NCBI GenBank assembly: GCA_963841755.1
Contig: CAWJDX010000025.1
Location: 67,048-131,047, forward strand
DNA: 64,000 bases
DNA from: an uncultured Candidatus Rokubacteria bacterium
Lineage (GTDB): Bacteria > Methylomirabilota > Methylomirabilia > Rokubacteriales > CSP1-6
Reading direction: 5' to 3'
A program made the position numbers and the translations under genes. The notes under the pieces are model-generated. The model did no database searches. It was not told the origin of the DNA and was given only the letters and a program-made list of their open reading frames with translations. Positions 6,224-54,034 of this stretch are shown here, in pieces; positions within the stretch are counted from its first letter, which is position 1; every line of letters begins with the position of its first letter.

Positions 6224-7192
6224 ATGAGCGAGGCGCTCCTCGAGGTCGACGACCTCCACACCCACTTCCACCTCAAGAACAAGACGGTGCGGGCGGTGAA
6301 CGGGGTCTCGTTCGCGATCAAGCGCGGGGAGATCGTCGGGATCGCGGGGGAGTCGGGGGCGGGCAAGAGCGTGGCCTGTCTCTCCATCCTGCGACTCGTC
6401 CCGAGCCCGGGGCGGATCGAGCGCGGCCGGATCCTCTTCTCCGGCGAGGATCTGCTCACCAAGAGCGACCGGCAGATGCGGGATCTACGGGGCCAGACCG
6501 TCTCGATGGTGTTCGAGGACCCGCTGAACTCCCTGGACCCGGCCTACACGGTCGGCAGCCTGATCGGGGAGGCCCTGATCCTCCACAAGGGCCTGTCCAA
6601 GCGCGCGGCCCGGGCCAAGGCGGGGGATCTGCTGCGGCTGGTGGGCATCCCGGACCCGGAGCGGCGGCTCGACAACTACGCCCACGAGCTGTCGGGCGGC
6701 ATGCAGCAGCGGGTGATGATCGCGATCGCGCTCTCCTGCGACCCGGCGCTGCTGATCGCGGACAACCCGACCACCGCGCTCGACGTGACCATCCAGATCC
6801 AGATCCTCGACCTGGTGAAGCAGCTCCGCGACCGGCTCGGCATGGGGGTGCTGTGGATCACCCACGACCTCGGGGTGGTGGCCAAGCTCTGCGACCGGGT
6901 GGTGATCATGTACGCGGGCGAGGTCATGGAGCAGGGCCGGGTGTACGACGTGCTGAAGCACCCGCGTCATCCCTACACGCGCCGGCTCATCGACGCGCTG
7001 CCCAAGCTCGGGCGCCCCGACCAGCGGCTCATGCCGATCGAGGGGCGCCCGCCCGATCCCGCGAACCTGCCCGCCGGATGTCCCTTCGCGCCGCGCTGCC
7101 ACCGGGCGCGCCCGGAGTGCGAGGCGGGCGACGTGCCGCTCGTCGAGACCGGCGACGGGCACGCGGTTCGCTGCCTGTTCCCGGAGGAGTGA
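6224..7192 (+). CDS. ABC transporter ATP-binding protein (DppD/OppD-like) with Asn in place of the Walker-B catalytic Glu
   Basis: Walker A GESGAGKS, signature LSGGMQQR, Walker [14 protein letters not shown]-terminal oligopeptide-type CPFAPRC motif. ATG at 6224. Confidence 0.9.
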
Positions 7193-7193
7193 G

Positions 7194-8270
7194 ATGACGA
7201 TCGCCGCGCCGCCCGAGGCGCCCAAGCTGCTGGAGGTCCCCATTCTGCTGGAGGTGAAGGATCTGGTGAAGCACTTCCCGGTGCGCCGGGGGCTCTGGGC
7301 GAGCGGCCCGCCCGCCGCGGTGCGCGCGGTCGACGGCATCAGCTTCGACATCCGGCGCGGCGAGACGGTCGGGCTGGTGGGCGAGTCCGGCTGCGGCAAG
7401 ACCACCACCGGGCGGATGATCATGAAGCTGATCGACCCGACCTCGGGGGAGATCCGCTTCGAGGGCAAGTCGATCGGGGGCATCCCGTTCGACGAGGAGC
7501 GCGCCTACCGCCGCCACGTGCAGATGGTCTTCCAGGATCCGTACTCGTCGCTGAACCCGCGGATGACGGTGGGCTCGATCATCGGCTACCCGATGCGGAT
7601 CCAGAACGCGTACCCCGGGGCCGCCCGCGACGCCCGCATCCGCGAGCTGCTGGAGCTGGTCGGCCTCTCGCGCTACCAGGCGAGCTGGTACCCGCACGAG
7701 TTCAGCGGGGGCGAGCGCCAGCGGGTGGGCATCGCGGCCGCCCTGGCGCTGAACCCCAAGTTCATCTTCTGCGACGAGCCGGTCTCCTCCCTCGACGTCT
7801 CGGCCCAGGCGCAGATCCTGAATCTGCTGAAGGACGTCCGCCGCGAGTTCAACCTCACCATCCTGATCGTGACCCACAACCTGAGCGTGGTGGAGTACCT
7901 GAGCGATCGGGTGGTGGTGATGTACCTCGGCAAGATCGTGGAGGTGGCCAGCACCGCCGATCTCTACCGCGAGACGCTCCACCCCTACAGCAAGGCCCTG
8001 GTCTCCGCGATCCCCACCCCGGACCCCGACGTGGAGCGCGAGCGGGAGCAGATCATCCTGAGAGGGGAGATCCCGAGCCCGCTCAATCCGCCCACCGGGT
8101 GCCGCTTCCACACCCGGTGCCAGGCCTACATCGGGGACGTCTGCCGAGACGTCGAGCCGGAGCTGCGCGAGGTGCGCCCCGGCCACTTCACCGCCTGTCA
8201 CCTCTACTCCGGGCTCACCGCGGCGCCGGCCGCGCCCGGGGCGTCCCGCGCCGCCGGCCAGCTCGTCTAG
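7194..8270 (+). CDS. ABC transporter ATP-binding protein (DppF/OppF-like)
   Basis: Walker A GESGCGKTT, signature FSGGERQR, Walker B FIFCDEPVSSLD. The ATG follows the preceding stop with a 1-nt gap. Confidence 0.9.
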   Translation: MTIAAPPEAPKLLEVPILLEVKDLVKHFPVRRGLWASGPPAAVRAVDGISFDIRRGETVGLVGESGCGKTTTGRMIMKLIDPTSGEIRFEGKSIGGIPFDEERAYRRHVQMVFQDPYSSLNPRMTVGSIIGYPMRIQNAYPGAARDARIRELLELVGLSRYQASWYPHEFSGGERQRVGIAAALALNPKFIFCDEPVSSLDVSAQAQILNLLKDVRREFNLTILIVTHNLSVVEYLSDRVVVMYLGKIVEVASTADLYRETLHPYSKALVSAIPTPDPDVEREREQIILRGEIPSPLNPPTGCRFHTRCQAYIGDVCRDVEPELREVRPGHFTACHLYSGLTAAPAAPGASRAAGQLV

Positions 8271-8289
8271 CGCCAAGGAGGACACCACC

Positions 8290-9805
8290 ATGCCCGTCTC
8301 GCTGCCCACCCCGGACCAGCTCAAGCGCATCGCCGAGAAGATGAACCTCTCGCTCACCGACGCCGACGTCGCGTCGTTCCTCGGCCTGATGAAGCCGAGC
8401 ATCGACGGCTACAACGTGGTCGACCAGCTCCCGGACAACCTGCCGCCGGTGAAGTACCCCCGCACCCCGGGCTACCGGCCCGGGCCGGAGGAGAACAAGC
8501 ACAACGCCTGGTACTACAAGTCGAAGATCGAGGGCGCGCCCCAGGGCAAGCTCAAGGGCAAGCGCGTCGTCGATCAAGGACAACGTGATGGTGGCCGGGG
8601 TGCCGATGATGAACGGGGCCTCGACCCTCGAGGGCTACACCCCGGAGATCGACGCCACCGTGGTGACCCGCATCCTGGACGCGGGCGGCACCATCCTCGG
8701 CAAGGCCCACTGCGAGTACTACTGCCTCTCCGGCGGCAGCCACACCAACGCGACCGGCCCGGTGCACAACCCTCACAAGATGGGCTACTCCGCGGGCGGC
8801 TCCTCGTCGGGCAGCGCGGTGCTGGTGGCGCTGGGCGAGGCCGACATGGCGATCGGCGGCGACCAGGGCGGCTCGATCCGCATGCCCGCCTCGTTCTGCG
8901 GCATCTACGGGATGAAGGCGACCCACGGGCTCGTGCCCTACACCGGCATCATGCCGATCGAGATCTACGTCGACCACACCGGCCCGATGACCGCCACCGT
9001 GGCAGACAACGCCCTGCTCCTCGAGGCGATCGCGGGACCGGACGGCTACGACCCGCGGCAGTTCGCGCCGAAGGTCCATCCCTACACCCAGCTTCTGGGC
9101 GGCGGGGCGAGCGGGCTCCGCATCGGGGTGGTGAAGGAGGGCTTCGGGCATCCGCAGTCGGAGGCGGTGGTCGACGCCAAGGTCCGTCAGGCGGCCGATC
9201 TCTTCAAGCGCCTCGGGGCCACCGTCACCGATATCTCGATCCCGGAGCATCTGCTCGCGGGCGCCTTGTGGCTGCCGATCGGGGTCGAGGGGCTCACCCA
9301 GACCATGATGTGGGGCGACGGCTACGGGGTCAGCCGGCAGGATCTCTACGTGACCAGCCTGATGGACCACCAGCGTGGCTGGCGCCAGCGGGCCAACGAG
9401 ATGTCCGAGACCACCAAGCTCTTCACGATGCTCGGCACCTACATCAACGAGCAGCACGGCAGCCGCTACTACGGCAAGGCGATGAACATCACCCGGCGCC
9501 TCACCGCCGCCTACGACGCGGCGCTGGCCGACTGCGACCTCCTGCTGATGCCGACCACGCCGATGAAGGCCCAGCCGATGCCGGGGCCGGGGGCGTCGCG
9601 GGAGGAGTACGTCGGGGGCGCGCTCAACATGATCACCAACACCGCGCCCTTCGACATCAGCCACCATCCGGCGATGGCGATCCCGTGCGGCATGGCCGAC
9701 GGGCTGCCGGTCAGCGTGATGCTGGCGGGCAAGCACTGGGACGAGCCGACGATCTACCGCGCGGCGCATGCCTTCGAGCAGGCCGGCGACTGGAAGGCGA
9801 TGTAA
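8290..9805 (+). CDS. amidase (amidase-signature family); frame broken near 8572
   Basis: AAGGAGG precedes ATG 8290. N-terminus MPVSLPTPDQLKRIAEKMNLSL... up to ...LKGKRVV, then the +1 frame reads IKDNVMVAGVPMMNGAS...GGSSSGSA...GGSIRMPA (ORF 8585..9805). Length is 1 mod 3. Confidence 0.85.
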
Positions 9806-40710: not shown

Positions 40711-41811
40711 ATGATCACGCTGCTCACGGATGCGGGGGAATTCGCGGTGGACGGGGCGGCTGCCTCGACGACGACGCTCTGGTGTCCCGCGCGCGACGCG
40801 GAGGCCGCCACGGGCTGGGTCGCCAAGCCGGAGGGGCTCTGCCGGGGGCCGGTCTGCGTGCCGCTGCCCGCGGGGCGCGAGCGCGAGTTCGTCGACGGTG
40901 GGCGCATCGACCTGGCCGCGCTCTGGCGCCACCTCGGTCAGCCCGCGATCCACGGCGACCGGGGCGACGCGTGGGTGCTCTCGCAGAGCGCGCGCGACCG
41001 CGCGGCGACGCTGGGCGCGCTGGAGGCGCCGGACTTCGCGCTGCCCGACGCGGCCGGCCGGCTGCACCGGCTCTCCGAGCATCGCGGGAAGAAGGTCCTG
41101 CTCGTCACCTGGGCGTCCTGGTGAGGGTGCCGTCGCGACCTGCCCGTGTGGCAGGCGCTCTACGAGGAGCTGGGCGATCGCGGCTTCGTGGTGATCGCGG
41201 TGGCGATGGACAGCCGCGAGGGCGATCCGCTGCCGTGGATCGAGGCGGCCCGGCCCACCTATCCGACCCTGATCGATCGCGACCATCGGCTCGCCGAGCT
41301 CTACGGCATCGTCAACGTGCCGCAGGCGGTGTGGATCGACGAGGCCGGCCGCATCGTGCGTCCCGCGGAGCCGGCCGGCGCCTATGAAGGCTTCCGCAAG
41401 ATGAACCGGGCGACGCGGGAGATGCCGGAGGACGTGGCGCGTCTCACCGCGCAGGCGAAGGCGACGTATCTCGACGCGATCCGCGACTGGGTGCGCCTCG
41501 GGCCGAAGAGCTCCCACGCCCTCACCGCGGCCCAGGCGCGCGAGCACCTGCCCACGCCGCGCGAGGACACCGCCCGGGCCCAGGCGATGTTCCGGCTCGG
41601 GCAGCTCCTGATCCGGCGGGGAGAGCGCGAGGAAGGCGAGCGGTGGATCCACGAGGCGAGCCGCCTGCACCCCGACTCCTGGTGCATCTGGCGCCAGGGG
41701 GCGGGGGTCAACGAGACGGGGCTGGCCGCGCTGCCCGAGTTCTGGCAGCGGGTCGACGCGCTCGGGGAGGCGCGCTACTACGCCCGGGTCGACATGCCCG
41801 GCATGCCCTAG
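40711..41811 (+). CDS. ResA/TlpA-like thioredoxin-fold protein with W-A-x-x-U-G-C motif; candidate selenoprotein (in-frame UGA 41122..41124)
   Basis: ORFs 40267..41124 and 41146..41811 share one frame. Read-through gives ...EHRGKKVLLVTWASW-U-GCRRDLPVWQALYEELGDRGFVVIAVAMDS...NVPQAVWIDEAGRIV.... The TGA therefore sits where ResA/TlpA proteins carry the first redox Cys. Confidence 0.65.
41135..41158 (+). promoter_or_regulatory. SECIS-like stem-loop downstream of the ResA-like UGA
   Basis: GCG-A-CCUGCC [CGUGU] GGCAGG-CGC: 9 bp with one bulged A and a 5-nt loop containing GU. The stem starts 10 nt and the loop 21 nt after the UGA. Confidence 0.45.
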
Positions 41812-41817
41812 CCGGCG

Positions 41818-44046
41818 ATGGCCGGCCCGGAGCCCTCGCACACGTTTCCGGCCAGCCGAGACTTCAGCTCGCTCTCGGTTCGCGACCTGATCGAGGCGCG
41901 CGACCACTACCACGTCCACCTCGCGCACCTCCAGAACGTCAAGGCCACCGCGATCGGCCGCTACCTCATCCGCGCGGACGACTGGTACGCGGAGCATCCG
42001 CCGTCGACCCGGCCGCCGAAGGGGTACCGCCGGCCGACCGGGCCGCGCACCATGTTCAACTCGGTGGTGCGCGAATGGTCCTGGCCCTGCGTGCTGGTCT
42101 TCGTGGACCGGTGGGCCGATCGACGGCGCCTCGACAACGTGGACGATCCCGACCAGATCGTGCCGCGCCTGCTCTACCTGCCGGACGGGCGCGTGGTCCC
42201 CACCTGCGTGGTCCAGGTCAGCATGCACACGGCGCCCGCGGGCCTGCCTCACGACTACCGGTTCCCGAAGGCCTTCGTCGGGGGCGGCTACCCGGTGCTC
42301 GCGGCCGTGCAGGGGCGCGAGCACGTGGGCTCGCTCGGTTGCCTCGTCACCGACGGGAGCGTGACCTACGCGCTCACGAGCCGTCACGTGGTCGGCGACG
42401 CGGGCCGCGAGATGTACTCGATCGTGGGCGGCCGCCGGGAGCGCATCGGGGTGTCCGACGCGCGGCAGGTCGGCAAGAAGCCGTTCGAGGCGGTCTATCC
42501 CGGGTGGCCGGGAAGCCACGTGTACAGCAATCTGGACGCGGGGCTCATCCGGGTCGACGACGTCTCGCGCTGGACCACCCAGGTGCTGGGGGTGGGCGAG
42601 ATCGACGAGATGATCGACCTCAACACCGACACCATCACGCTCGACCTGATCGACTGCCCGGTGCGCGCCTTCGGGGCGGCCTCGGGCCAGCTGTTCGGCC
42701 GGGTCGCCGGCTTCTTCTACCGCTACAAGTCGGTGGGCGGCTTCGACTACGCGGCCGACCTGCTCATCCGGCCCCGGCCCGATCCGGCGGATCCGGCCCG
42801 GACGCCGAGCACGCTGCCCGGCGATTCGGGCACGCTCTGGTGCCTCGAGGAGCCGTGGCCGGCGGGCGACGAGCGCTCGCACCGGAGCCCGACGCGCCTC
42901 CGCCCGATCGCGCTGCAGTGGGGCGGGCAGGTGCTCGTGGAGGACGGGATCGCCTCGTCCACCGCCCGGAGCTTCGCGCTCGCCACCTCGCTCAGCACCG
43001 TCTGCCGCGAGCTCGACCTCGACCTGGTGCGGGACTGGAACACCGGGCTGCCGGAGTACTGGGGAGCCGTCGGCCACTACACGATCGCCGCCATCGCGTG
43101 CTCGCGGGTCAAGAGCACCAAGCTCCGGAAGCTGCTCGCGGCCAACCTCGAGCGCATCTCGTTCCCGCGCGCGGTCATCGAGAAGGGTGCGAACGCCTTC
43201 GACGGGCTCTCCAAGAAGCCGTTCATCCCGCTCGCCGACGTTCCGGACTACGCCTGGAAGGGCGGCGGGCGCAGCGGCGAGCAGCCGAACCACTTCGCGG
43301 ACATGGACGCGAAGGTGCCGTCGGGGGAGTGGAAGGGCAAGACGCTGCTCGACCTGTGCCACGACGAGGCCAACGTCGACGTGGGGGTGTGGACGCAGTA
43401 CTACAAGCTGGTGAAGGACCGCAACAAGGGGACCCTGCCGTTCCGGGTCTGGCAGATCTTCTCGGCGATGAAGGGCTTCGCCCGCGCCAAGGACGTGCCG
43501 CAGTTCGTGGCCGCCGCGGGGGTGCTCGCCCACTACGTGGGCGACGCGTGCCAGCCGCTGCACATCTCCTACATGTACAACGGCAAGCCGGTGGCGGGCG
43601 GCAAGAAGGGCGAGGGCGTCCACCACGAGTACGAGGCCGCCATGTTCAACGCGCACGTGGCCGAGCTGTGGGACGGGATCACGGCCAAGATCCCCGGCGG
43701 GGCCTTCGCCTCGATCACCACCGGCCGGGCGGCCGCGGTCGCCACCGTGCGCTTGATGGACACCACCTTCACCCTCATCCCGCCGGAGGACATCGTGAAC
43801 GCGTACGCGCAGGGGCAGGACCTGTGGGCCCGGTTCGGGGATCGGACCAAGCAGACGATGGCGAACGGGGTGCGCGCGCTCGCCGAGCTGTGGGAGAACG
43901 CGTGGAAGGCCGGCAACGGCAACGCGATCGCCACCACCGCGCTGGGGGCGGTCGACCCGGGGGTGCTGGCCGGCATCTACACCCGCGACGACTTCCTGCC
44001 CTCGCACCGGATCAAGGACATCGCCTCCGTGCTGGACGCGACCTGA
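41818..44046 (+). CDS. fusion protein: trypsin-like serine protease domain (N) + zinc-dependent phospholipase C / S1-P1 nuclease superfamily domain (C)
   Basis: Intact 742-aa ORF with no signal peptide. Protease triad motifs: TSRH190VVGD, NLD240AGLIRV, PGDS337GTLW (spacing 50/97 aa, close to the chymotrypsin-fold spacing). C-terminal motifs: YW415GAVGH420, PLAD474VPD, NH492FAD, LAH572YVGD576ACQPLH582, H602HEYE606. Confidence 0.7.
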   Translation: MAGPEPSHTFPASRDFSSLSVRDLIEARDHYHVHLAHLQNVKATAIGRYLIRADDWYAEHPPSTRPPKGYRRPTGPRTMFNSVVREWSWPCVLVFVDRWADRRRLDNVDDPDQIVPRLLYLPDGRVVPTCVVQVSMHTAPAGLPHDYRFPKAFVGGGYPVLAAVQGREHVGSLGCLVTDGSVTYALTSRHVVGDAGREMYSIVGGRRERIGVSDARQVGKKPFEAVYPGWPGSHVYSNLDAGLIRVDDVSRWTTQVLGVGEIDEMIDLNTDTITLDLIDCPVRAFGAASGQLFGRVAGFFYRYKSVGGFDYAADLLIRPRPDPADPARTPSTLPGDSGTLWCLEEPWPAGDERSHRSPTRLRPIALQWGGQVLVEDGIASSTARSFALATSLSTVCRELDLDLVRDWNTGLPEYWGAVGHYTIAAIACSRVKSTKLRKLLAANLERISFPRAVIEKGANAFDGLSKKPFIPLADVPDYAWKGGGRSGEQPNHFADMDAKVPSGEWKGKTLLDLCHDEANVDVGVWTQYYKLVKDRNKGTLPFRVWQIFSAMKGFARAKDVPQFVAAAGVLAHYVGDACQPLHISYMYNGKPVAGGKKGEGVHHEYEAAMFNAHVAELWDGITAKIPGGAFASITTGRAAAVATVRLMDTTFTLIPPEDIVNAYAQGQDLWARFGDRTKQTMANGVRALAELWENAWKAGNGNAIATTALGAVDPGVLAGIYTRDDFLPSHRIKDIASVLDAT

Positions 44047-44051
44047 GCCCG

Positions 44052-45167
44052 ATGCCCCCGCTGCCGCGCTTCGGGCTGAACCGCTTCGACTCCCGCTCGG
44101 TCGACGCCTTCGCGGCGGACGTGCGCCGCGCCGAGCAGCTCGGCTGGGACGCCGCGCTCCAGCCGGACTCGCAGCTCCGCCGGCGCGACACCTACGTGCT
44201 GCTCGCCGCGGCGGCGCGGGTCACCGAGCGGATCGCGCTCGGGCCGCTCCTGGCCAACCCGGTGAACCGCCATCCCACCGTCACCGCGTCGTCGATCGCC
44301 ACCGTGGACGAGCTGGCGCCGGGGCGGGTGCTGCTCGGCTGGGGCGTGGGCGACACCGCGGTGCGCCTGGCCGGCCTCAAGCCGGCGCGGGTCGCCGAGC
44401 TGGAGGCGAGCACGCGGCTCATGCGGGCGCTGCTCGACGGGCAGGCGGTGGAGGTGGGCGCGGCGCGGCCGGCGCGCCTGCCGCATCACCGGCCGGTGCC
44501 GATCTGGATCGCCGCCGGCGGCCCGCGCACCCTGCGCATGGCGGGCGGCGTCGCGGACGGGGTGTTCATCCGGGTGGGCACCCATCCCGCCAACATCGCC
44601 ACCGCGGTGAGCGCGATCCGCGCCGGAGCCGTCGCGGCCGGCCGCGACCCGGCCTCGGTGCGGCTCGGCGCCGTCTTCCACACCGTGCTGGTGGACGACG
44701 CGGAGCGCGCGCTCGTCATGGCGCGCTCGATGGCGGCGGGCTACTACGAGTACTCTCCCGCGCTCTTCGACCCGCCCGGGCTGGCCTGGACCGGCCCGGA
44801 TCCGGAGAGCCTCAAGCACGCCCGGGGAGTCTGGCCCGATTTTCACCACGCGACGGATCTGGAGGCGAGCGGGCGGGCGGTGGACTTCCTCCCGGAGAGC
44901 GCGGCCGATGCCTTCAGCCTCCGCGGGGCGCCCGCCGAGGTGGCGCGGCAGCTGGTGACCGCTCTCCGCGACGCGCCCGCGCCCTTCGACTACGTGGTGC
45001 TCCACCCGATCCCCGACCCGAAGTGGCCGGGCGACCCCGAGCGCGACTACACCGCCCGCGTCGCCCGCGAGGTCCTCCCGCTCGTCCGCCGCGCCGCTGG
45101 GCAGCTAAGCGAGCTGTTTGTGGACGAACTCGATGATGCGCGCGATCGTCCGCTCGACGGCGGGTGA
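44052..45167 (+). CDS. LLM-class (luciferase-like) flavin/F420-dependent oxidoreductase; 3' end probably at 45108
   Basis: ATG 44052. ...LGPLLANPVNRHPTVTASSIATVDELAPGRVLLGWGVGD.... The last 20 codons are antisense to the convergent esterase gene and use atypical codons (CTA, TTT, GAA, GATx3, CGT). In the +1 frame a TAA lies at 45106..45108. Confidence 0.8.
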   Translation: MPPLPRFGLNRFDSRSVDAFAADVRRAEQLGWDAALQPDSQLRRRDTYVLLAAAARVTERIALGPLLANPVNRHPTVTASSIATVDELAPGRVLLGWGVGDTAVRLAGLKPARVAELEASTRLMRALLDGQAVEVGAARPARLPHHRPVPIWIAAGGPRTLRMAGGVADGVFIRVGTHPANIATAVSAIRAGAVAAGRDPASVRLGAVFHTVLVDDAERALVMARSMAAGYYEYSPALFDPPGLAWTGPDPESLKHARGVWPDFHHATDLEASGRAVDFLPESAADAFSLRGAPAEVARQLVTALRDAPAPFDYVVLHPIPDPKWPGDPERDYTARVAREVLPLVRRAAGQLSELFVDELDDARDRPLDGG

Positions 45168-46087: not shown

Positions 46088-47983
<1,896 letters not shown>

Positions 47984-47994
<11 letters not shown>

Positions 47995-50142: not shown

Positions 50143-51240
50143 TCAGGCGTGGTGGTGGCCGTGATCGTAGTGCGCCTTGAGCAGGTCGAGGCCGAAGTCG
50201 CGCCGCGGGTCGTGCCACACGGAGTGGATGTGGTTGGCGTCGTTCTGGGTGTTGTCGTACTCGATCAGCAGCGTGGGACCGTGGAGGCGATAGTAGTGCG
50301 GCTTGCCCGGCTCGAGCGGGCCCGCCCACGCGAAGCGGATCAGCTCGGGGCCCGCCTGGCGCATGCGGCCGAGCTCCTGCTCGGCGAGCTCGCCGCGCAT
50401 GTTGCGCGCGTACTCCTCGATCAGGCGCAGCGCCTGGCTCCGCTGGTCCCCGGTCATGTCGGAGAGGGCGAGGCCGGTGGGCGTCGCGAGGCTGTCCGCG
50501 CGGCCGGGGCCGCTGACGATGTCGCCGAGCGACTGGGCCGCGATGACGCCGCGGGCGCGCTGCGGGTCGCTGAGGCTCCGCGCGAGCGCCCGGCCCAGGT
50601 CCTGCTCCGCGGCGAGGACGCGCTGGCCCTTCTGGGGACCCGACGGAACCTCGGCCGGATTGGCGCCGAGGAAGGCGGGCGTCATCGCGACCGGCCGGCC
50701 CGGCACGAGCGTGAAGTTGAGCGAGAGGTGATGGCCCTCGACCCGCCAGCCCCACGCGGCCGACGGGCCCGGATTGCCGAAGACGGTGAACGCGTAGTTG
50801 TCCGGGTCCCGCATGAGACCGAAGGTCTCGAGGCGGCGCAGCACCTCCTCGAGGCGGATGATCCCGACCGCCTTGCCGTAGCCCACCGCGCTCAGGCTCG
50901 CCTTCATGAGCTCGTGGGCCGCGGCGCGCCCCGCCGCCGGCATGTCCTTGAAGGGCACGCCCGCGCGCCGGCGTGGGATGTAGTGCCAGTCGAGCCGCTC
51001 CTTGTCCTCGACCGCGAACACCGCGTGCCGCCGCGTCTCCGCGGGCAGCGCGCCGAGGAGCGCGAGCGCGGCGCCGGCCATCGCCGCCCGCGGGGCGTCG
51101 CCGACATCGGCGAGGGACGGCGCGGGGGCGAGGGACGGCGCGGTCGGCGGGCTCTGCCCGTGCGCGGGCCGGACCAGCGCTCCCGCCGCCGCGCTCGCCG
51201 CCAGCCCGTGGAGCAGGCGGCGGCGCGTGAGCCCCGCCAT
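50143..51240 (-). CDS. DUF3500-family protein, Tat signal (periplasmic)
   Basis: Intact 365-aa ORF. MAGLTRRRLLHGLAASAAAGALVRPAHG..., C-terminal ...HYYRLHGPTLLIEYDNTQNDANHIHSVWHDPRRDFG.... The ATG directly abuts the upstream TAG. Confidence 0.7.
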   Translation of the reverse strand: MAGLTRRRLLHGLAASAAAGALVRPAHGQSPPTAPSLAPAPSLADVGDAPRAAMAGAALALLGALPAETRRHAVFAVEDKERLDWHYIPRRRAGVPFKDMPAAGRAAAHELMKASLSAVGYGKAVGIIRLEEVLRRLETFGLMRDPDNYAFTVFGNPGPSAAWGWRVEGHHLSLNFTLVPGRPVAMTPAFLGANPAEVPSGPQKGQRVLAAEQDLGRALARSLSDPQRARGVIAAQSLGDIVSGPGRADSLATPTGLALSDMTGDQRSQALRLIEEYARNMRGELAEQELGRMRQAGPELIRFAWAGPLEPGKPHYYRLHGPTLLIEYDNTQNDANHIHSVWHDPRRDFGLDLLKAHYDHGHHHA

Positions 51241-51891
51241 CTACGAGTACTTGACGGTGCAGCCGTACGCGCGCGTGATCGGCGTCTTCACCGGCTGGCC
51301 CGCGCTCACCGACTCGAGGGCCGCGCGGACGTAGTTGCTGGCGCCCGGCACGTCGGCCCGCCGGGTGGTGGGCCGGTCGTCGATGGCGCCCGCGTAGATG
51401 AGGGTGCCCGCCTTGTCCACCACGTACATGTGCGGGGTGTTGGTGGCGCCGTACATGCGCCCGACCACGCCCGGCTCGTCGAGCAGCACCGCGGTGGGCG
51501 CCGCCTTGCGGCTCGTGGTCAGCTCGTCGGCCTGCGCGGCGGTCACGTAGCCCTGCTCGCCCTTGGCCGAGGAGATCAGGGTGAGCCAGACCACGCCCTG
51601 CCCGGTGGCCTCGCGCTGCAGCGCCTGCATGTTGCCGGTCTCGTAGTGCTTCCGCACGTAGGGGCACTCGTGGTTGGTCCACTCGAGCACCACGATCTTG
51701 CCCTTGTAGGACGCGAGGCTCACCGGGGAGCCGTTCGTGGCGTTGGCGGTGAAGGCGGGGGCGGCCTCGCCGACCTTCGCCTGCACCGCGGCGGAGGCGG
51801 CGCGCGGGCCGAGGGTGGTGGCGACACCGCCGACCAGGATGGCGGCACCGGTGCGGGTGAGGAAGCGGCGGCGGCTCAGTGACTCGGGCAT
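51241..51891 (-). CDS. periplasmic thioredoxin-fold (redoxin) protein, Tat signal, single CP motif
   Basis: ATG 51891. MPESLSRRRFLTRTGAAILVGG...KIVVLEWTNHECPYVRKHYETGNMQALQ.... Confidence 0.75.
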   Translation of the reverse strand: MPESLSRRRFLTRTGAAILVGGVATTLGPRAASAAVQAKVGEAAPAFTANATNGSPVSLASYKGKIVVLEWTNHECPYVRKHYETGNMQALQREATGQGVVWLTLISSAKGEQGYVTAAQADELTTSRKAAPTAVLLDEPGVVGRMYGATNTPHMYVVDKAGTLIYAGAIDDRPTTRRADVPGASNYVRAALESVSAGQPVKTPITRAYGCTVKYS

Positions 51892-51920
51892 CGGGTGGTC
51901 TCCTTTCGCTGACGTCGGGC

Positions 51921-54034
51921 TCAGAGCTTCCGGACGGCCTCGATGATGGTTCCCTCGCTCAGGATCTGCGGTAGCACGCGCGGCGGCGAGCTGCCGCCGC
52001 GGTAGAGCACGTAGAGCGGCACACCGCTCCGCCCGAAGGATTCGAGCAGCGCCGCGATCTCGGGGCTCTTGCTGGTCCAGTCGGCCTTGAGGTAGACGAC
52101 GCCCCGCCGGGCGAAGGCGTCGGTCACCGCGGGCGAGTGCAGCGCCACCCGCTCGTTCACGAGGCAGGTGATGCACCAGGCGGCGGTGAAGTTGACGAAG
52201 ACCGGCGTGCCCTGCGCGCGCAGCGCGGCCAGGCGCTCCGCCGTGAACGGCTCCCAGGCCGCGCCCGCGGGCGCGGCCGCGGCGGGCGCGGGCGACGGGC
52301 TCGTCGCCACCAGCGGGCCGAGGCCGAGCGCGCCGGCCACGCAGCCGAGCGCGAGCACGGTGGCCGCGCGACGCCAGCGCACGGAGGTGCCCGCGCGGGT
52401 GGCCTGGTGGAGCCACGCCGCGAAGCCGATCAGGAGCAGTCCGATCAGGACCAGCGCCACTCCGTCCGGCCCGGCCTGGCGGCTCGACCACCCACACGAG
52501 CCAGGCCACGGAGGCGTAGAGCGGGAAGGCGAGCGCCTGCTTGAGCCGCTCCATCCAGGGGCCCGGGCGGGGCAGCAGGCGCCGCCACGCGGGGACCAGG
52601 GAGAGCGCCAGGAATGGCAGGGCGAGGCCGAGCCCGAGGGCCTCGAAGACCAGCAGCGCGGTGGCCGGCGGCTGGGTGAGCGCGTAGCCCACCGCCACGC
52701 CCATGAACGGGGCGGTGCAGGGCGTCGCGGCCACCGCGGCCAGCGCGCCGGTGAAGAAGGAGCCCCGGTAGCCCGGGCGGGCCGCCAGCCCGTGGCCGAC
52801 GCCGGTCAGCCGGGTGCCGAGCACCAGGACGCCCGAGAGGCTCAGGCCGAGCGCGAAGAGCAGGTAGGCGAGCGCGCCCACGACCACCGGGGACTGGAGC
52901 TGGAAGCCCCAGCCGACCTCGGCCCCGCCCGCGCGCAGCGCGATCAGGGCACCGGCCAGCGCGGCGAACGAGACCAGCACGCCGGCCGTGTAGGCGAGCC
53001 CGTGGCGCCGCAGGACGGCCGACGAGGTCTGGGCATGGGAGACCAGGGCAATCGCCTTGACGGAAAGCACCGGTAGAACGCACGGCATGAGATTCAGGAT
53101 GAGCCCGCCGGCGAGGGCCAGGCCGATCGCGACCACGAGAGAGAGCCCCGCGCGGGCGGCGGAGGACTTCGGGGGCGGCGGTCGCCCGGATCGCGAAGGC
53201 CTGGGTCACCAGCCCCTGGTCCAGCCGCTCGCGCATCACCAGGACGCCGTCGAGATCGGTCGCGGGGCCGTCCGGCAGCGCGCCGCGGGCGATGCGCAGC
53301 GTGATGCCGCCCTCGTCGATGGTGACCGCCTGGGCCGCCGCGTGATCGATGACGCCCCAGCGGGCCGGGAAGAACCACACGTCCGAGATCCGGTCGGCGG
53401 CCAGGCGAGGGGCCGCGACCGACACGCGTCACGGTCTCGGGCGTCGCGCTCAGCGTCGCGGGCCACGGGCTCGGGGCCGGGACCGCGCGGCGGGCGCTGC
53501 TCGATGGCCGGCGCGGTCACCGCCGGGGCCGGACGGCCCGCGATGACCGGCAGGGTCAGCGCGACGTCGGCCTCCTCGGGGATGCAGGTCTTCTCGCACA
53601 CGAGCCACGAGGCCCGGCCGCGCAGCGTGACGCGGCTCCCGGGCTGGGCGTCGGCCGGCACGGTGACGCGGGTGAGCAGGACGACCTCCTTGGTGTAGCC
53701 GTAGCTCATCACCGGCCCCACCGGCAGCCGCTCGGGCCGCGGCCACACGATCGGCTCCGCGCCGAACCCGGTGGGAAGAGACCATTCGATGCTCGGCGCC
53801 TCGCCGGAGTCGCCCGGGTTGAGCCAGTAGGTGTGCCAGCCCGGGGCGATGCGCTGCCGGAGCCCCACCCAGAGCGGAGAGCCCGGCTCGATGGACGCGC
53901 CCTCGCTGATCAGCGCCACCGAGACCTTGGGCGGGTCCGGCGGGGGGAGGGCCACCGGCGCGCGGCGGGGCGGCGAGCGCGGGTCCGGCCAGGAACCCGA
54001 CCAGGAGCGCGGCGGCGAGCAGGCGAATCGCCAT
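51921..54034 (-). CDS. DsbD/ScsB-like thiol:disulfide interchange protein (N-terminal domain + DsbD TM core + C-terminal thioredoxin); about five frame breaks
   Basis: ATG 54034: MAIRLLAAALLVGFLAGPALA. The pieces join across 53236..53955 (...WHTYWLNPGDSG...WLVCEKTCIPE), 52445..53425, 51241..53136 (...GGLILNLMPCVLPVLS...ATPCTAPFMG) and 51921..52460 (...FTAAWCITCLVNE...). Breaks are near 53958, 53480, 53430, 53140-53200 and 52488. Length is 2 mod 3. Confidence 0.75.

Follow-up and report, generated by a model that had tools for sequence, protein, structure and literature searches.

The rice protein Nal1 is an intracellular protease that works as a hexameric cage, an assembly required for an active catalytic triad. 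In the S1/P1 nucleases and the zinc-dependent phospholipases C (PLCs), the free alpha-amino group and the carbonyl of the N-terminal tryptophan both serve as ligands of one zinc; the zinc ligands of P1 nuclease are W1, H6, D45, H60, H116, D120, H126, H149 and D153, and the PLC ligand pattern runs W1...H14 (a spacing of 13) with an H...E ending. Here we describe a gene whose 742-residue product brings these two kinds of enzyme together, an N-terminal Nal1-type protease being followed in the same chain by a domain resembling S1/P1 nucleases and zinc PLCs. The gene lies on a 64,000-nt stretch of DNA (hereafter the window) from an uncultured Candidatus Rokubacteria bacterium (assembly GCA_963841755.1, contig CAWJDX010000025.1, positions 67,048 to 131,047), and was singled out in an earlier note made from the sequence of the window without database searches.

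Each of the parts has described counterparts. Nal1 has been characterized as a substrate-selective cage protease with the catalytic triad H234/D291/S385 (PMC12012508). The proenzyme of Listeria PC-PLC is activated by the protease Mpl, which removes its propeptide, and the addition of a single residue before W1 abolishes its activity (PMC10576769). Activation of a latent hydrolase by a protease has also been reported in the antiviral systems Hachiman and AVAST, which rely on trypsin-like proteases to switch on a gated MBL-fold pro-nuclease (PMC12799240). The fusion analyzed here has the tryptophan ligand of its phosphoesterase domain at residue 415, immediately after a conserved junction, and we consider below whether cleavage at that junction by the attached protease may activate the enzyme.

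Two domains of the fusion protein

The gene is intact, as the earlier note had claimed: it opens with an ATG, closes with a stop codon, and has a uniform GC content at third codon positions (GC3) of 0.97, typical of genuine genes in this window of 72% GC. An identical protein is present in public collections, unnamed, on a 300-kb contig, and a search of NCBIfam with the fusion protein returned no match. All of the residues named in the note are found at their positions (H190, D240, S337, W415, G416, G419, H420, D474, H492, H572, D576, H582, H602 and E606), and the motif residues are near-invariant in the two sets of homologues used here, one of 56 sequences with 47–74% identity to the query and one of 66 cluster representatives with 38–52% identity. 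Profile and structure searches likewise place both halves in the superfamilies that the note had proposed, and we consider the two-domain architecture, a Nal1-type protease followed by an S1/P1-nuclease/zinc-PLC-like domain, to be almost certain.

No signal peptide or transmembrane segment was identified by hydropathy or Pfam in the fusion protein or in the homologues examined. The highest 19-residue Kyte-Doolittle mean in the fusion protein is 1.32, and both the query and its homologues have hydrophilic N-termini, which bears out the absence of both elements read from the sequence earlier; the fusion protein is thus predicted to be cytoplasmic. The accompanying remark that both parent families are normally secreted applies to the C-terminal family and fails for the N-terminal half, the closest relative of which, Nal1, is intracellular, so that no signal peptide would be expected in this half.

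The N-terminal half had been described as trypsin-like. Its chymotrypsin fold and catalytic triad stand, although it is not a generic trypsin and belongs specifically to the Nal1 type. In a phmmer search against the Protein Data Bank (PDB), rice Nal1 was the sole match at E <0.01 (E 9e-7 over residues 89–370), and in this alignment H190, D240 and S337 fall opposite the Nal1 triad. A full-length AlphaFold2 model generated with the 56-homologue alignment (mean predicted local distance difference test score, pLDDT, of 88; predicted TM-score, pTM, of 0.60) was searched with Foldseek, and the 34 best matches were all Nal1 chains (E 8e-21 to 8e-14, target TM-score 0.69–0.79), headed by 8pmi_B (E 7.7e-21, TM-score 0.72). 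Proteases of the alpha-lytic and SGPB (Streptomyces griseus) type rank after Nal1, at E ~1e-8. The Nal1 alignments span 404–433 columns for chain lengths of 333–409 residues, that is, near full length, and several of the matched constructs (31–458, 36–458) contain the N-terminal and ATP-binding-domain regions. A precomputed match to the Pfam family Nal1_C (PF25819) is, in addition, carried by most homologues among the matches listed. By sequence and by model, the N-terminal half is a complete Nal1-type chymotrypsin-fold serine protease, with proteolytic activity predicted.

Comparison with rice NAL1 (PDB 7Y77, 8PMG/8PMI/8PMM, 8HAS–8HAU) reveals the same fold, matched at E ~1e-20 and target TM-scores of 0.70–0.79 over 414–433 columns for chains of 343–409 residues, and a residue-for-residue correspondence of the triad, even though sequence identity is only ~21%. 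Neither protein has a signal peptide, and the fusion is predicted to share the intracellular location of NAL1. The residues of the ATP-Mg binding loop of Nal1 include R120, R122, K123 and K139 (PMC12012508); the segment of the fusion aligned to Nal1 keeps some basic residues. The two proteins diverge beyond the protease module: plant NAL1 runs on past residue 458 to residue 582, a tail missing from the solved constructs, whereas the bacterial protein has at this point a 328-residue zinc phosphoesterase domain.

The best Pfam match of the C-terminal domain is S1-P1_nuclease (PF02265), which covers residues 415–620 with profile positions 1–156 of 258 (E 9.6e-7). A profile of this domain, built from 26 phylogenetically diverse genomes and searched against the whole PDB, matched only S1/P1 nucleases, with ENDO2 first (E 2e-4) and SmNuc1, S1 and P1 thereafter. 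A separate model of residues 410–742 reached a pLDDT of 92.9 and a pTM of 0.93, and the top 32 Foldseek matches of the domain are exclusively S1/P1 nucleases or zinc PLCs (SmNuc1, S1, BFN2, TBN1, PC-PLC, alpha-toxin), beyond which only noise was returned. The probability of these matches is 0.93–1.00 with one exception, and their target TM-scores of 0.37–0.67 and E-values of 2e-3 to 0.4 identify the domain as a divergent member of the superfamily.

All nine zinc-ligand positions of the S1/P1 nucleases are present in order in the C-terminal domain. Seven of them are aligned by HMMER, and D474 and H492 are placed by motif order; the latter two are presumably the equivalents of D45 and H60 of P1 nuclease, judging from the order of the motifs and from the P1 sequence. 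The order of metal-ligand motifs set out in the earlier note is borne out by the HMMER alignments, the Pfam match and conservation. W415 is kept in 56/56 and 64/66 members of the two homologue sets, H420 in 56/56 and 65/66, and D474 in 54/56 and 62/66, with D477, H492 and D497 invariant. Further along, H572 and D576 are found in 66 of the 66 representatives, and H582 and H602 in 65 each. Position 606 is Glu in 61 representatives and Asp in five, in agreement with the description of the H...E ending as a PLC-type variant, the S1/P1 nucleases having Asp at this position.

The S1/P1 nucleases (P1 1AK0, S1 5FB9, ENDO2/BFN2 3W52, SmNuc1 8QJL) have in common with the C-terminal domain the all-helical fold, the order of the motifs, the W-G-x-x-G-H sequence with its five-residue Trp-His spacing, and HxxGDxxQPLH. 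They differ from it in their last ligand, Asp instead of Glu, and in size, the domain of the fusion being ~60–80 residues larger and reaching TM-scores of only 0.45–0.65 with them. Known S1/P1 nucleases are, moreover, secreted and carry the tryptophan as their mature N-terminus, whereas that of the fusion is residue 415 of a predicted cytoplasmic protein. The zinc PLCs (Bacillus cereus PC-PLC 1AH7, Listeria PC-PLC 8CQM, Clostridium perfringens alpha-toxin) resemble the domain in fold and in the H...E ending, and depart from it in their Trp1-His14 spacing. On sequence grounds, the domain appears somewhat closer to the S1/P1 nucleases.

Six cysteines of the fusion protein (C91, C130, C175, C396, C428 and C578; window positions ~42088–43551) are invariant or nearly so across the family, and C578 falls within the GDACQPLH metal motif, at the position of a His in S1/P1 nucleases. 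Additional metal binding or a redox switch are conceivable functions of these residues, the latter deserving attention given that a disulfide-reductase gene adjoins the fusion in this lineage. The features of the fusion gene and of its two immediate neighbours are collected in Table 1.

Table 1. Positions in the window of the fusion gene, its predicted domains and motifs, and the two adjoining genes.
Feature	Position	Strand	Basis or remark
Complete fusion gene	41818..44046	+	Intact ORF (open reading frame), ATG start, 742 aa, stop codon 44044-44046
Nal1-type module, residues 1-405: N-terminal and ATP-binding-domain (ABD)-like parts, chymotrypsin-fold serine-protease domain	41818..43032	+	phmmer, Foldseek, Pfam
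His190 codon, catalytic triad	42385..42387	+	Aligned to Nal1 H234; 56/56 and 65/66 homologues
Asp240 codon, catalytic triad	42535..42537	+	Aligned to Nal1 D291; 56/56 and 64/66 homologues
Ser337 codon (GDSGT), catalytic nucleophile	42826..42828	+	Aligned to Nal1 S385; 56/56 and 65/66 homologues
Linker, residues 406-414, D-W-N-x-G-L-P-E-Y, of fixed length; P side of the proposed cleavage, Tyr414 being P1	43033..43059	+	
All-helical trinuclear-zinc phosphoesterase domain (predicted), residues 415-742, starting W415-G-x-x-G-H420	43060..44043	+	Pfam, profile, Foldseek
W415-G-A-V-G-H420, equivalent of S1/P1 Trp1 and His6, first zinc site	43060..43077	+	HMMER: WGKEGH of ENDO2, WGAQGH of SmNuc1 (mature N-termini)
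D474 (in LADVPD477) and N-H492-F-A-D-M-D497 motif	43237..43305	+	Inside the Pfam S1-P1 match
H572-Y-V-G-D576-A-C-Q-P-L-H582, core metal-binding helix	43531..43563	+	HMMER: HFMGDIHQPLH of ENDO2, HLVGDIHQPMH of SmNuc1
H602-x-x-x-E606, last two metal ligands	43621..43635	+	HMMER: H..D of ENDO2 (NLHHIWD)
TlpA/AhpC-like thiol-disulfide reductase with tetratricopeptide-repeat (TPR) tail	40711..41811	+	In-frame TGA 41122-41124; ends 6 nt before the fusion ATG
Luciferase-like (LLM) oxidoreductase	44052..45167	+	Starts 5 nt after the fusion stop; Bac_luciferase E 3e-42

The fusion family

Homologues of the fusion protein are numerous. A word-indexed search returned at least 2,548 homologue clusters; 120 of the 120 among the matches listed are near full length, with 89–100% query coverage, and almost all of those listed are labelled hypothetical. 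A scan of one genome per species identified 395 stretches matching the fusion, and an exhaustive HMMER search with the C-terminal domain alone yielded 872 representatives at 50% clustering. The hosts seen in the genome scan encompass Acidobacteriota, Myxococcota (Archangium), Chloroflexota (Ktedonobacter), Bacteroidota, and Alpha- and Betaproteobacteria (Bradyrhizobium, Sphingomonas, Burkholderia), to which Gemmatimonadota, Planctomycetota, Verrucomicrobiota and others are to be added, at only 42–55% identity to the query. The fusion family thus occurs in more than 10 phyla, mostly in soil bacteria. A search of the literature for bacterial Nal1-like proteases or for this pair of domains found no paper. 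The architecture is therefore common in databases yet uncharacterized; the novelty attributed to it in the earlier note holds in the latter sense only, with at least 2,548 clusters speaking against rarity and a PADLOC-DB model, discussed below, spanning both domains of a sister family.

The breadth of this family also bears on the possibility that an error of sequencing or assembly joined two adjacent genes, or that the motifs arose by chance. This explanation was rejected, and its probability is close to nil: the 120 near-full-length homologues come from many independent assemblies, the fusion was matched in 395 stretches of species genomes, the coding signature (GC3) is uniform along the gene, and the full-length and C-domain models reach pLDDT values of 88 and 93, with nothing found in favour of an artefact.

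A stand-alone C-terminal domain of this subfamily was not found. All 15 of the short matches inspected retain the tail of a protease domain at their start, and these short matches are therefore regarded as fragments; the fusion is, as far as the collected sequences indicate, obligate in this subfamily. The conservation of the active sites has a sole exception among the 66 representatives, a divergent member of 777 aa (P0255) that has lost the triad (H190S, D240E, S337V) together with five of the metal ligands (W415C, H420A, D474K, H582R, H602N). The joint loss hints, from this single case, that the two activities are functionally coupled.

The junction and its proposed cleavage

The full junction between the two domains reads R-D-W-N-x-G-L-P-E-Y414|W415-G-x-V-G-H, and its conservation matches that of the active sites. 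Neither Tyr414 nor Trp415 varies among the 56 homologues, in 55 of which residues 400 and 415 are 15 residues apart. Among the 66 more divergent representatives, the residue before the tryptophan is Tyr in 44, Thr in six, Ser in six, Phe in five, Arg in three and Val in one. Residues 408–414 have pLDDT values below 50 and are predicted to be flexible.

In the translated fusion protein, the tryptophan ligand is not a free mature N-terminus. Because Trp415 is internal and peptide-bonded to Tyr414, the phosphoesterase should be latent as translated, and because the N-terminal protease is always fused to this domain, it is the obvious activator. We propose that the fusion would be translated as a cytoplasmic single-chain proenzyme with an inactive phosphodiesterase, and that the fused protease, acting in cis or between the subunits of an oligomer, would cut the sequence ...L-P-E-Tyr414|Trp415-Gly... 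The cut would create an N-terminal tryptophan, complete the metal site and release an active enzyme, which would then degrade nucleic acid inside the cell (phospholipid being a less likely substrate). The protein could in this way serve in defence or abortive infection as a toxic effector that is self-contained and depends on a trigger, or it could be an enzyme of stress or cell death. Cleavage, activation, substrate, trigger and role are all inferred here, and the mechanism could equally turn out to be right or wrong. The internal position of Trp415 would nonetheless provide the idea of an auto-activated effector, put forward as speculation in the earlier note, with a concrete structural rationale.

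Two described systems operate along similar lines. In zinc PLC zymogens, a propeptide before Trp1 blocks the enzyme until a protease removes it, which is the logic proposed for the fusion (PMC10576769); the activator Mpl, however, is a separate metalloprotease in an extracellular system, whereas the fusion would have its protease in the same chain and in the cytoplasm. In the trypsin-MBL modules of Hachiman, AVAST and canu, a chymotrypsin-fold protease unmasks a latent nuclease within the cell, as we propose here, although the MBL-fold nuclease has a gene of its own and the protease carries a fused infection sensor (PMC12799240). The fusion differs from these modules in having another phosphoesterase fold, in being a single polypeptide, and in lacking a recognizable sensor or partner gene.

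The same junction can be viewed as a simple connection between two enzymes that are never separated. The protein would then be an uncleaved bifunctional hydrolase, degrading for instance nucleoprotein or ribosomes in starvation or turnover, and its zinc site would tolerate an internal tryptophan, either by using only the carbonyl of that residue or by being a two-metal site. The conservation of both active sites is compatible with this explanation, as are the ordinary metabolic neighbourhoods of the gene in most genomes and its spread among large-genome soil bacteria. Yet one residue before W1 suffices to kill the best-studied relative (PMC10576769), and the invariant Tyr-Trp pair and fixed linker length point to a processing or latch site instead of a passive tether. 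We regard an uncleaved bifunctional enzyme as unlikely.

Genomic context and the question of defence

A link to defence is suggested by the PADLOC-DB v2 model PDLC03017, named 'trypsin-like' and 611 positions long, which is matched by the N-terminal half on positions 19–300 and by the C-terminal half on positions 434–585 (127 bits). All of the 30 divergent members of the family compared with this model match it, the best E-value being 1.4e-66. Since both halves are matched, PDLC03017 represents the same two-domain layout; since the scores are modest, it corresponds to a sister lineage and not to this subfamily. A sister family with the same layout is therefore catalogued among known or candidate defence components. 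The system to which PDLC03017 belongs was not found in the PADLOC papers or in retron and defence preprints.

The name of the model is also in keeping with an inverted division of labour, in which the effector function would lie with the protease, and the S1/P1-like domain would be a sensor or regulator that binds nucleic acid, a nucleotide or a lipid and gates a Nal1-type cage; the gated cage protease would degrade cellular or viral proteins. Nal1 is indeed a substrate-selective cage protease (PMC12012508), and proteases are often the outputs of defence systems (PMC12799240). The conservation of all nine metal ligands would nevertheless be unexpected in a pure binding domain, and the tryptophan sits exactly where catalysis would need a new N-terminus. 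We deem this arrangement quite unlikely.

The surroundings of the gene were compared across genomes. An all-versus-all clustering of ORFs at 84 loci revealed no conserved operon partner beyond closely related Bradyrhizobium, and one individually examined copy of the fusion lies in an ordinary genomic context. These neighbourhoods bear as well on the notion of a secreted or injected toxin, delivered by a non-classical route (type VI or contact-dependent) and processed outside the producer. The parent families of the phosphoesterase domain are extracellular (PMC10576769), and a phospholipase similar to Tle1 of the type VI secretion system is encoded by one of 123 neighbouring genes. No secretion genes recur nearby, however, and no signal peptide, transmembrane segment or secretion-marker domain is present in the homologues examined; Nal1 proteases, too, are intracellular. 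An exported toxin is accordingly very improbable.

A phage or mobile origin of the fusion was considered as well and rejected, there being no viral or phage matches in IMG/VR or INPHARED and only five large plasmids that carry it. One plasmid copy, a fusion homologue at positions 6992–9271 of the conjugative p1 of Sphingobium fuliginis (NZ_CP060037.1), is flanked on one side by a ParD/ParE pair and an annotated anti-phage dGTPase, and on the other by a CYTH-domain gene and Tn7-like TniQ/TniB/transposase genes. A neighbourhood of this accessory or defence type differs from most of the chromosomal contexts. In Neorhizobium galegae (CP090555.1) and Sinorhizobium sp. B11 (CP091033.1), the fusion is matched in four and two pieces, respectively, each annotated as a separate hypothetical protein, and these plasmid copies may be decaying or frameshifted.

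Several results weigh against the reading of the fusion as a self-cleaving effector with a role in defence. The residue before the tryptophan is non-aromatic (T, S, R or V) in 16 of the 66 representatives, and the orientation of the two domains is uncertain, as the pTM of the full-length model is only 0.60. The Pfam scores of the query fall short of their cut-offs, with only 14.8 bits for Zn_dep_PLPC (PF00882; cut-off 26.8), slightly for Nal1_C (22.7 bits, cut-off 26.1), and marginally for S1-P1_nuclease (29.3 bits, cut-off 29.5). With a Trp-His spacing of five and sequence scores that are S1/P1-like, and a final Glu that is PLC-like, the C-terminal domain cannot be assigned to the nuclease or the lipase branch. 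Within 123 flanking ORFs at ~62 loci, none of 146 Pfam families recurs more than three times, and defence-island enrichment was not detected, the few PADLOC matches among those ORFs being mostly of generic helicase or ATPase type. Searches of IMG/VR and of INPHARED phages returned no match to the fusion, and it is rare on plasmids (5 of 72,556, all of them replicons of 0.39–2.2 Mb). The genomic context, taken as a whole, does not support defence.

Taking these points together with the catalogued sister family, we consider a defence role of the fusion possible but doubtful. The protein might act alone as an effector of defence or abortive infection, serve in stress or cell death, or simply be a housekeeping hydrolase.

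In the window itself, the fusion is the middle one of three tightly packed genes on the + strand, encoding a redoxin (the thiol-disulfide reductase of Table 1), the fusion and the LLM oxidoreductase, with no terminator-like sites found between them; the three form an apparent cluster. This arrangement is shared with one other contig (L001), in which the fusion is 94% identical and the gene at the position of the LLM oxidoreductase 97.7% identical, and it is not shared with other phyla. The LLM gene is missing from the mechanical list of ORFs because it is in frame with a long shadow ORF (41643–45167).

The upstream redoxin gene contains an in-frame TGA at its redox motif (TWASW-TGA-G-C-R). A relative whose DNA is 90% identical keeps the TGA, the changes on either side of it being mostly synonymous, and most of the redoxin homologue clusters at 78–98% identity among the matches listed are split at the same point; full-length homologues at 51–59% identity read W-C-G-C, with Cys in place of the TGA. 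Because the codon is conserved, the changes around it are synonymous and distant homologues have Cys, this gene very likely encodes a selenoprotein, the redox motif of which would read U-G-C. A SECIS-like hairpin (CCUGCC-CGUGU-GGCAGG) starts 20 nt past the TGA; with a z of 0.46, it does not stand out in folding energy.

Elsewhere in the window, a second thiol-redox gene (51241–53136, − strand), whose product joins a DsbD-type transmembrane domain and an AhpC/TSA-redoxin domain, adjoins a DUF3500 gene (50143–51240, − strand). A PAS-PAS-HisKA histidine-kinase ORF (46088–47782, + strand) matches only the first 34 of 111 HATPase_c positions, and an ORF that overlaps it in another frame (47482–47994, + strand) encodes a response-regulator receiver domain; for the region 46088–47994, a hybrid kinase disrupted by a frameshift and a pair of overlapping genes are both possible. 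With 93% identity between a neighbouring CoA-transferase and proteins of metagenome-assembled genomes assigned by NCBI to Methylomirabilota, this phylum is the probable source of the window. Rfam and tRNA scans of the 64-kb window identified no tRNA or Rfam RNA genes.

The fusion may tentatively be seen as a new kind of self-contained enzyme for bacterial suicide or defence, whose Nal1-type cage protease would sense a trigger, cut its own chain between Tyr and Trp and thereby complete the three-zinc site of a nuclease or phospholipase, although we hold this full scenario to be less than probable. Protease-activated latent phosphodiesterases are known in Mpl/PlcB and in the trypsin-MBL systems; what would be new here is the single polypeptide and the different folds. 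If the proposal is correct, protease-gated effector activation would take place within one polypeptide, through folds not previously linked to immunity, and the joining of protease and latent effector in one chain would constitute a compact, genetically minimal form of proteolytic unmasking of a metal site. It would also be a first step towards the function of thousands of 'hypothetical proteins' of soil bacteria such as Bradyrhizobium, Burkholderia, Archangium and Ktedonobacter. The ancestor of NAL1, a plant yield gene, may, finally, be related to this bacterial family, which would also offer bacterial relatives for the study of a protease of agronomic importance.

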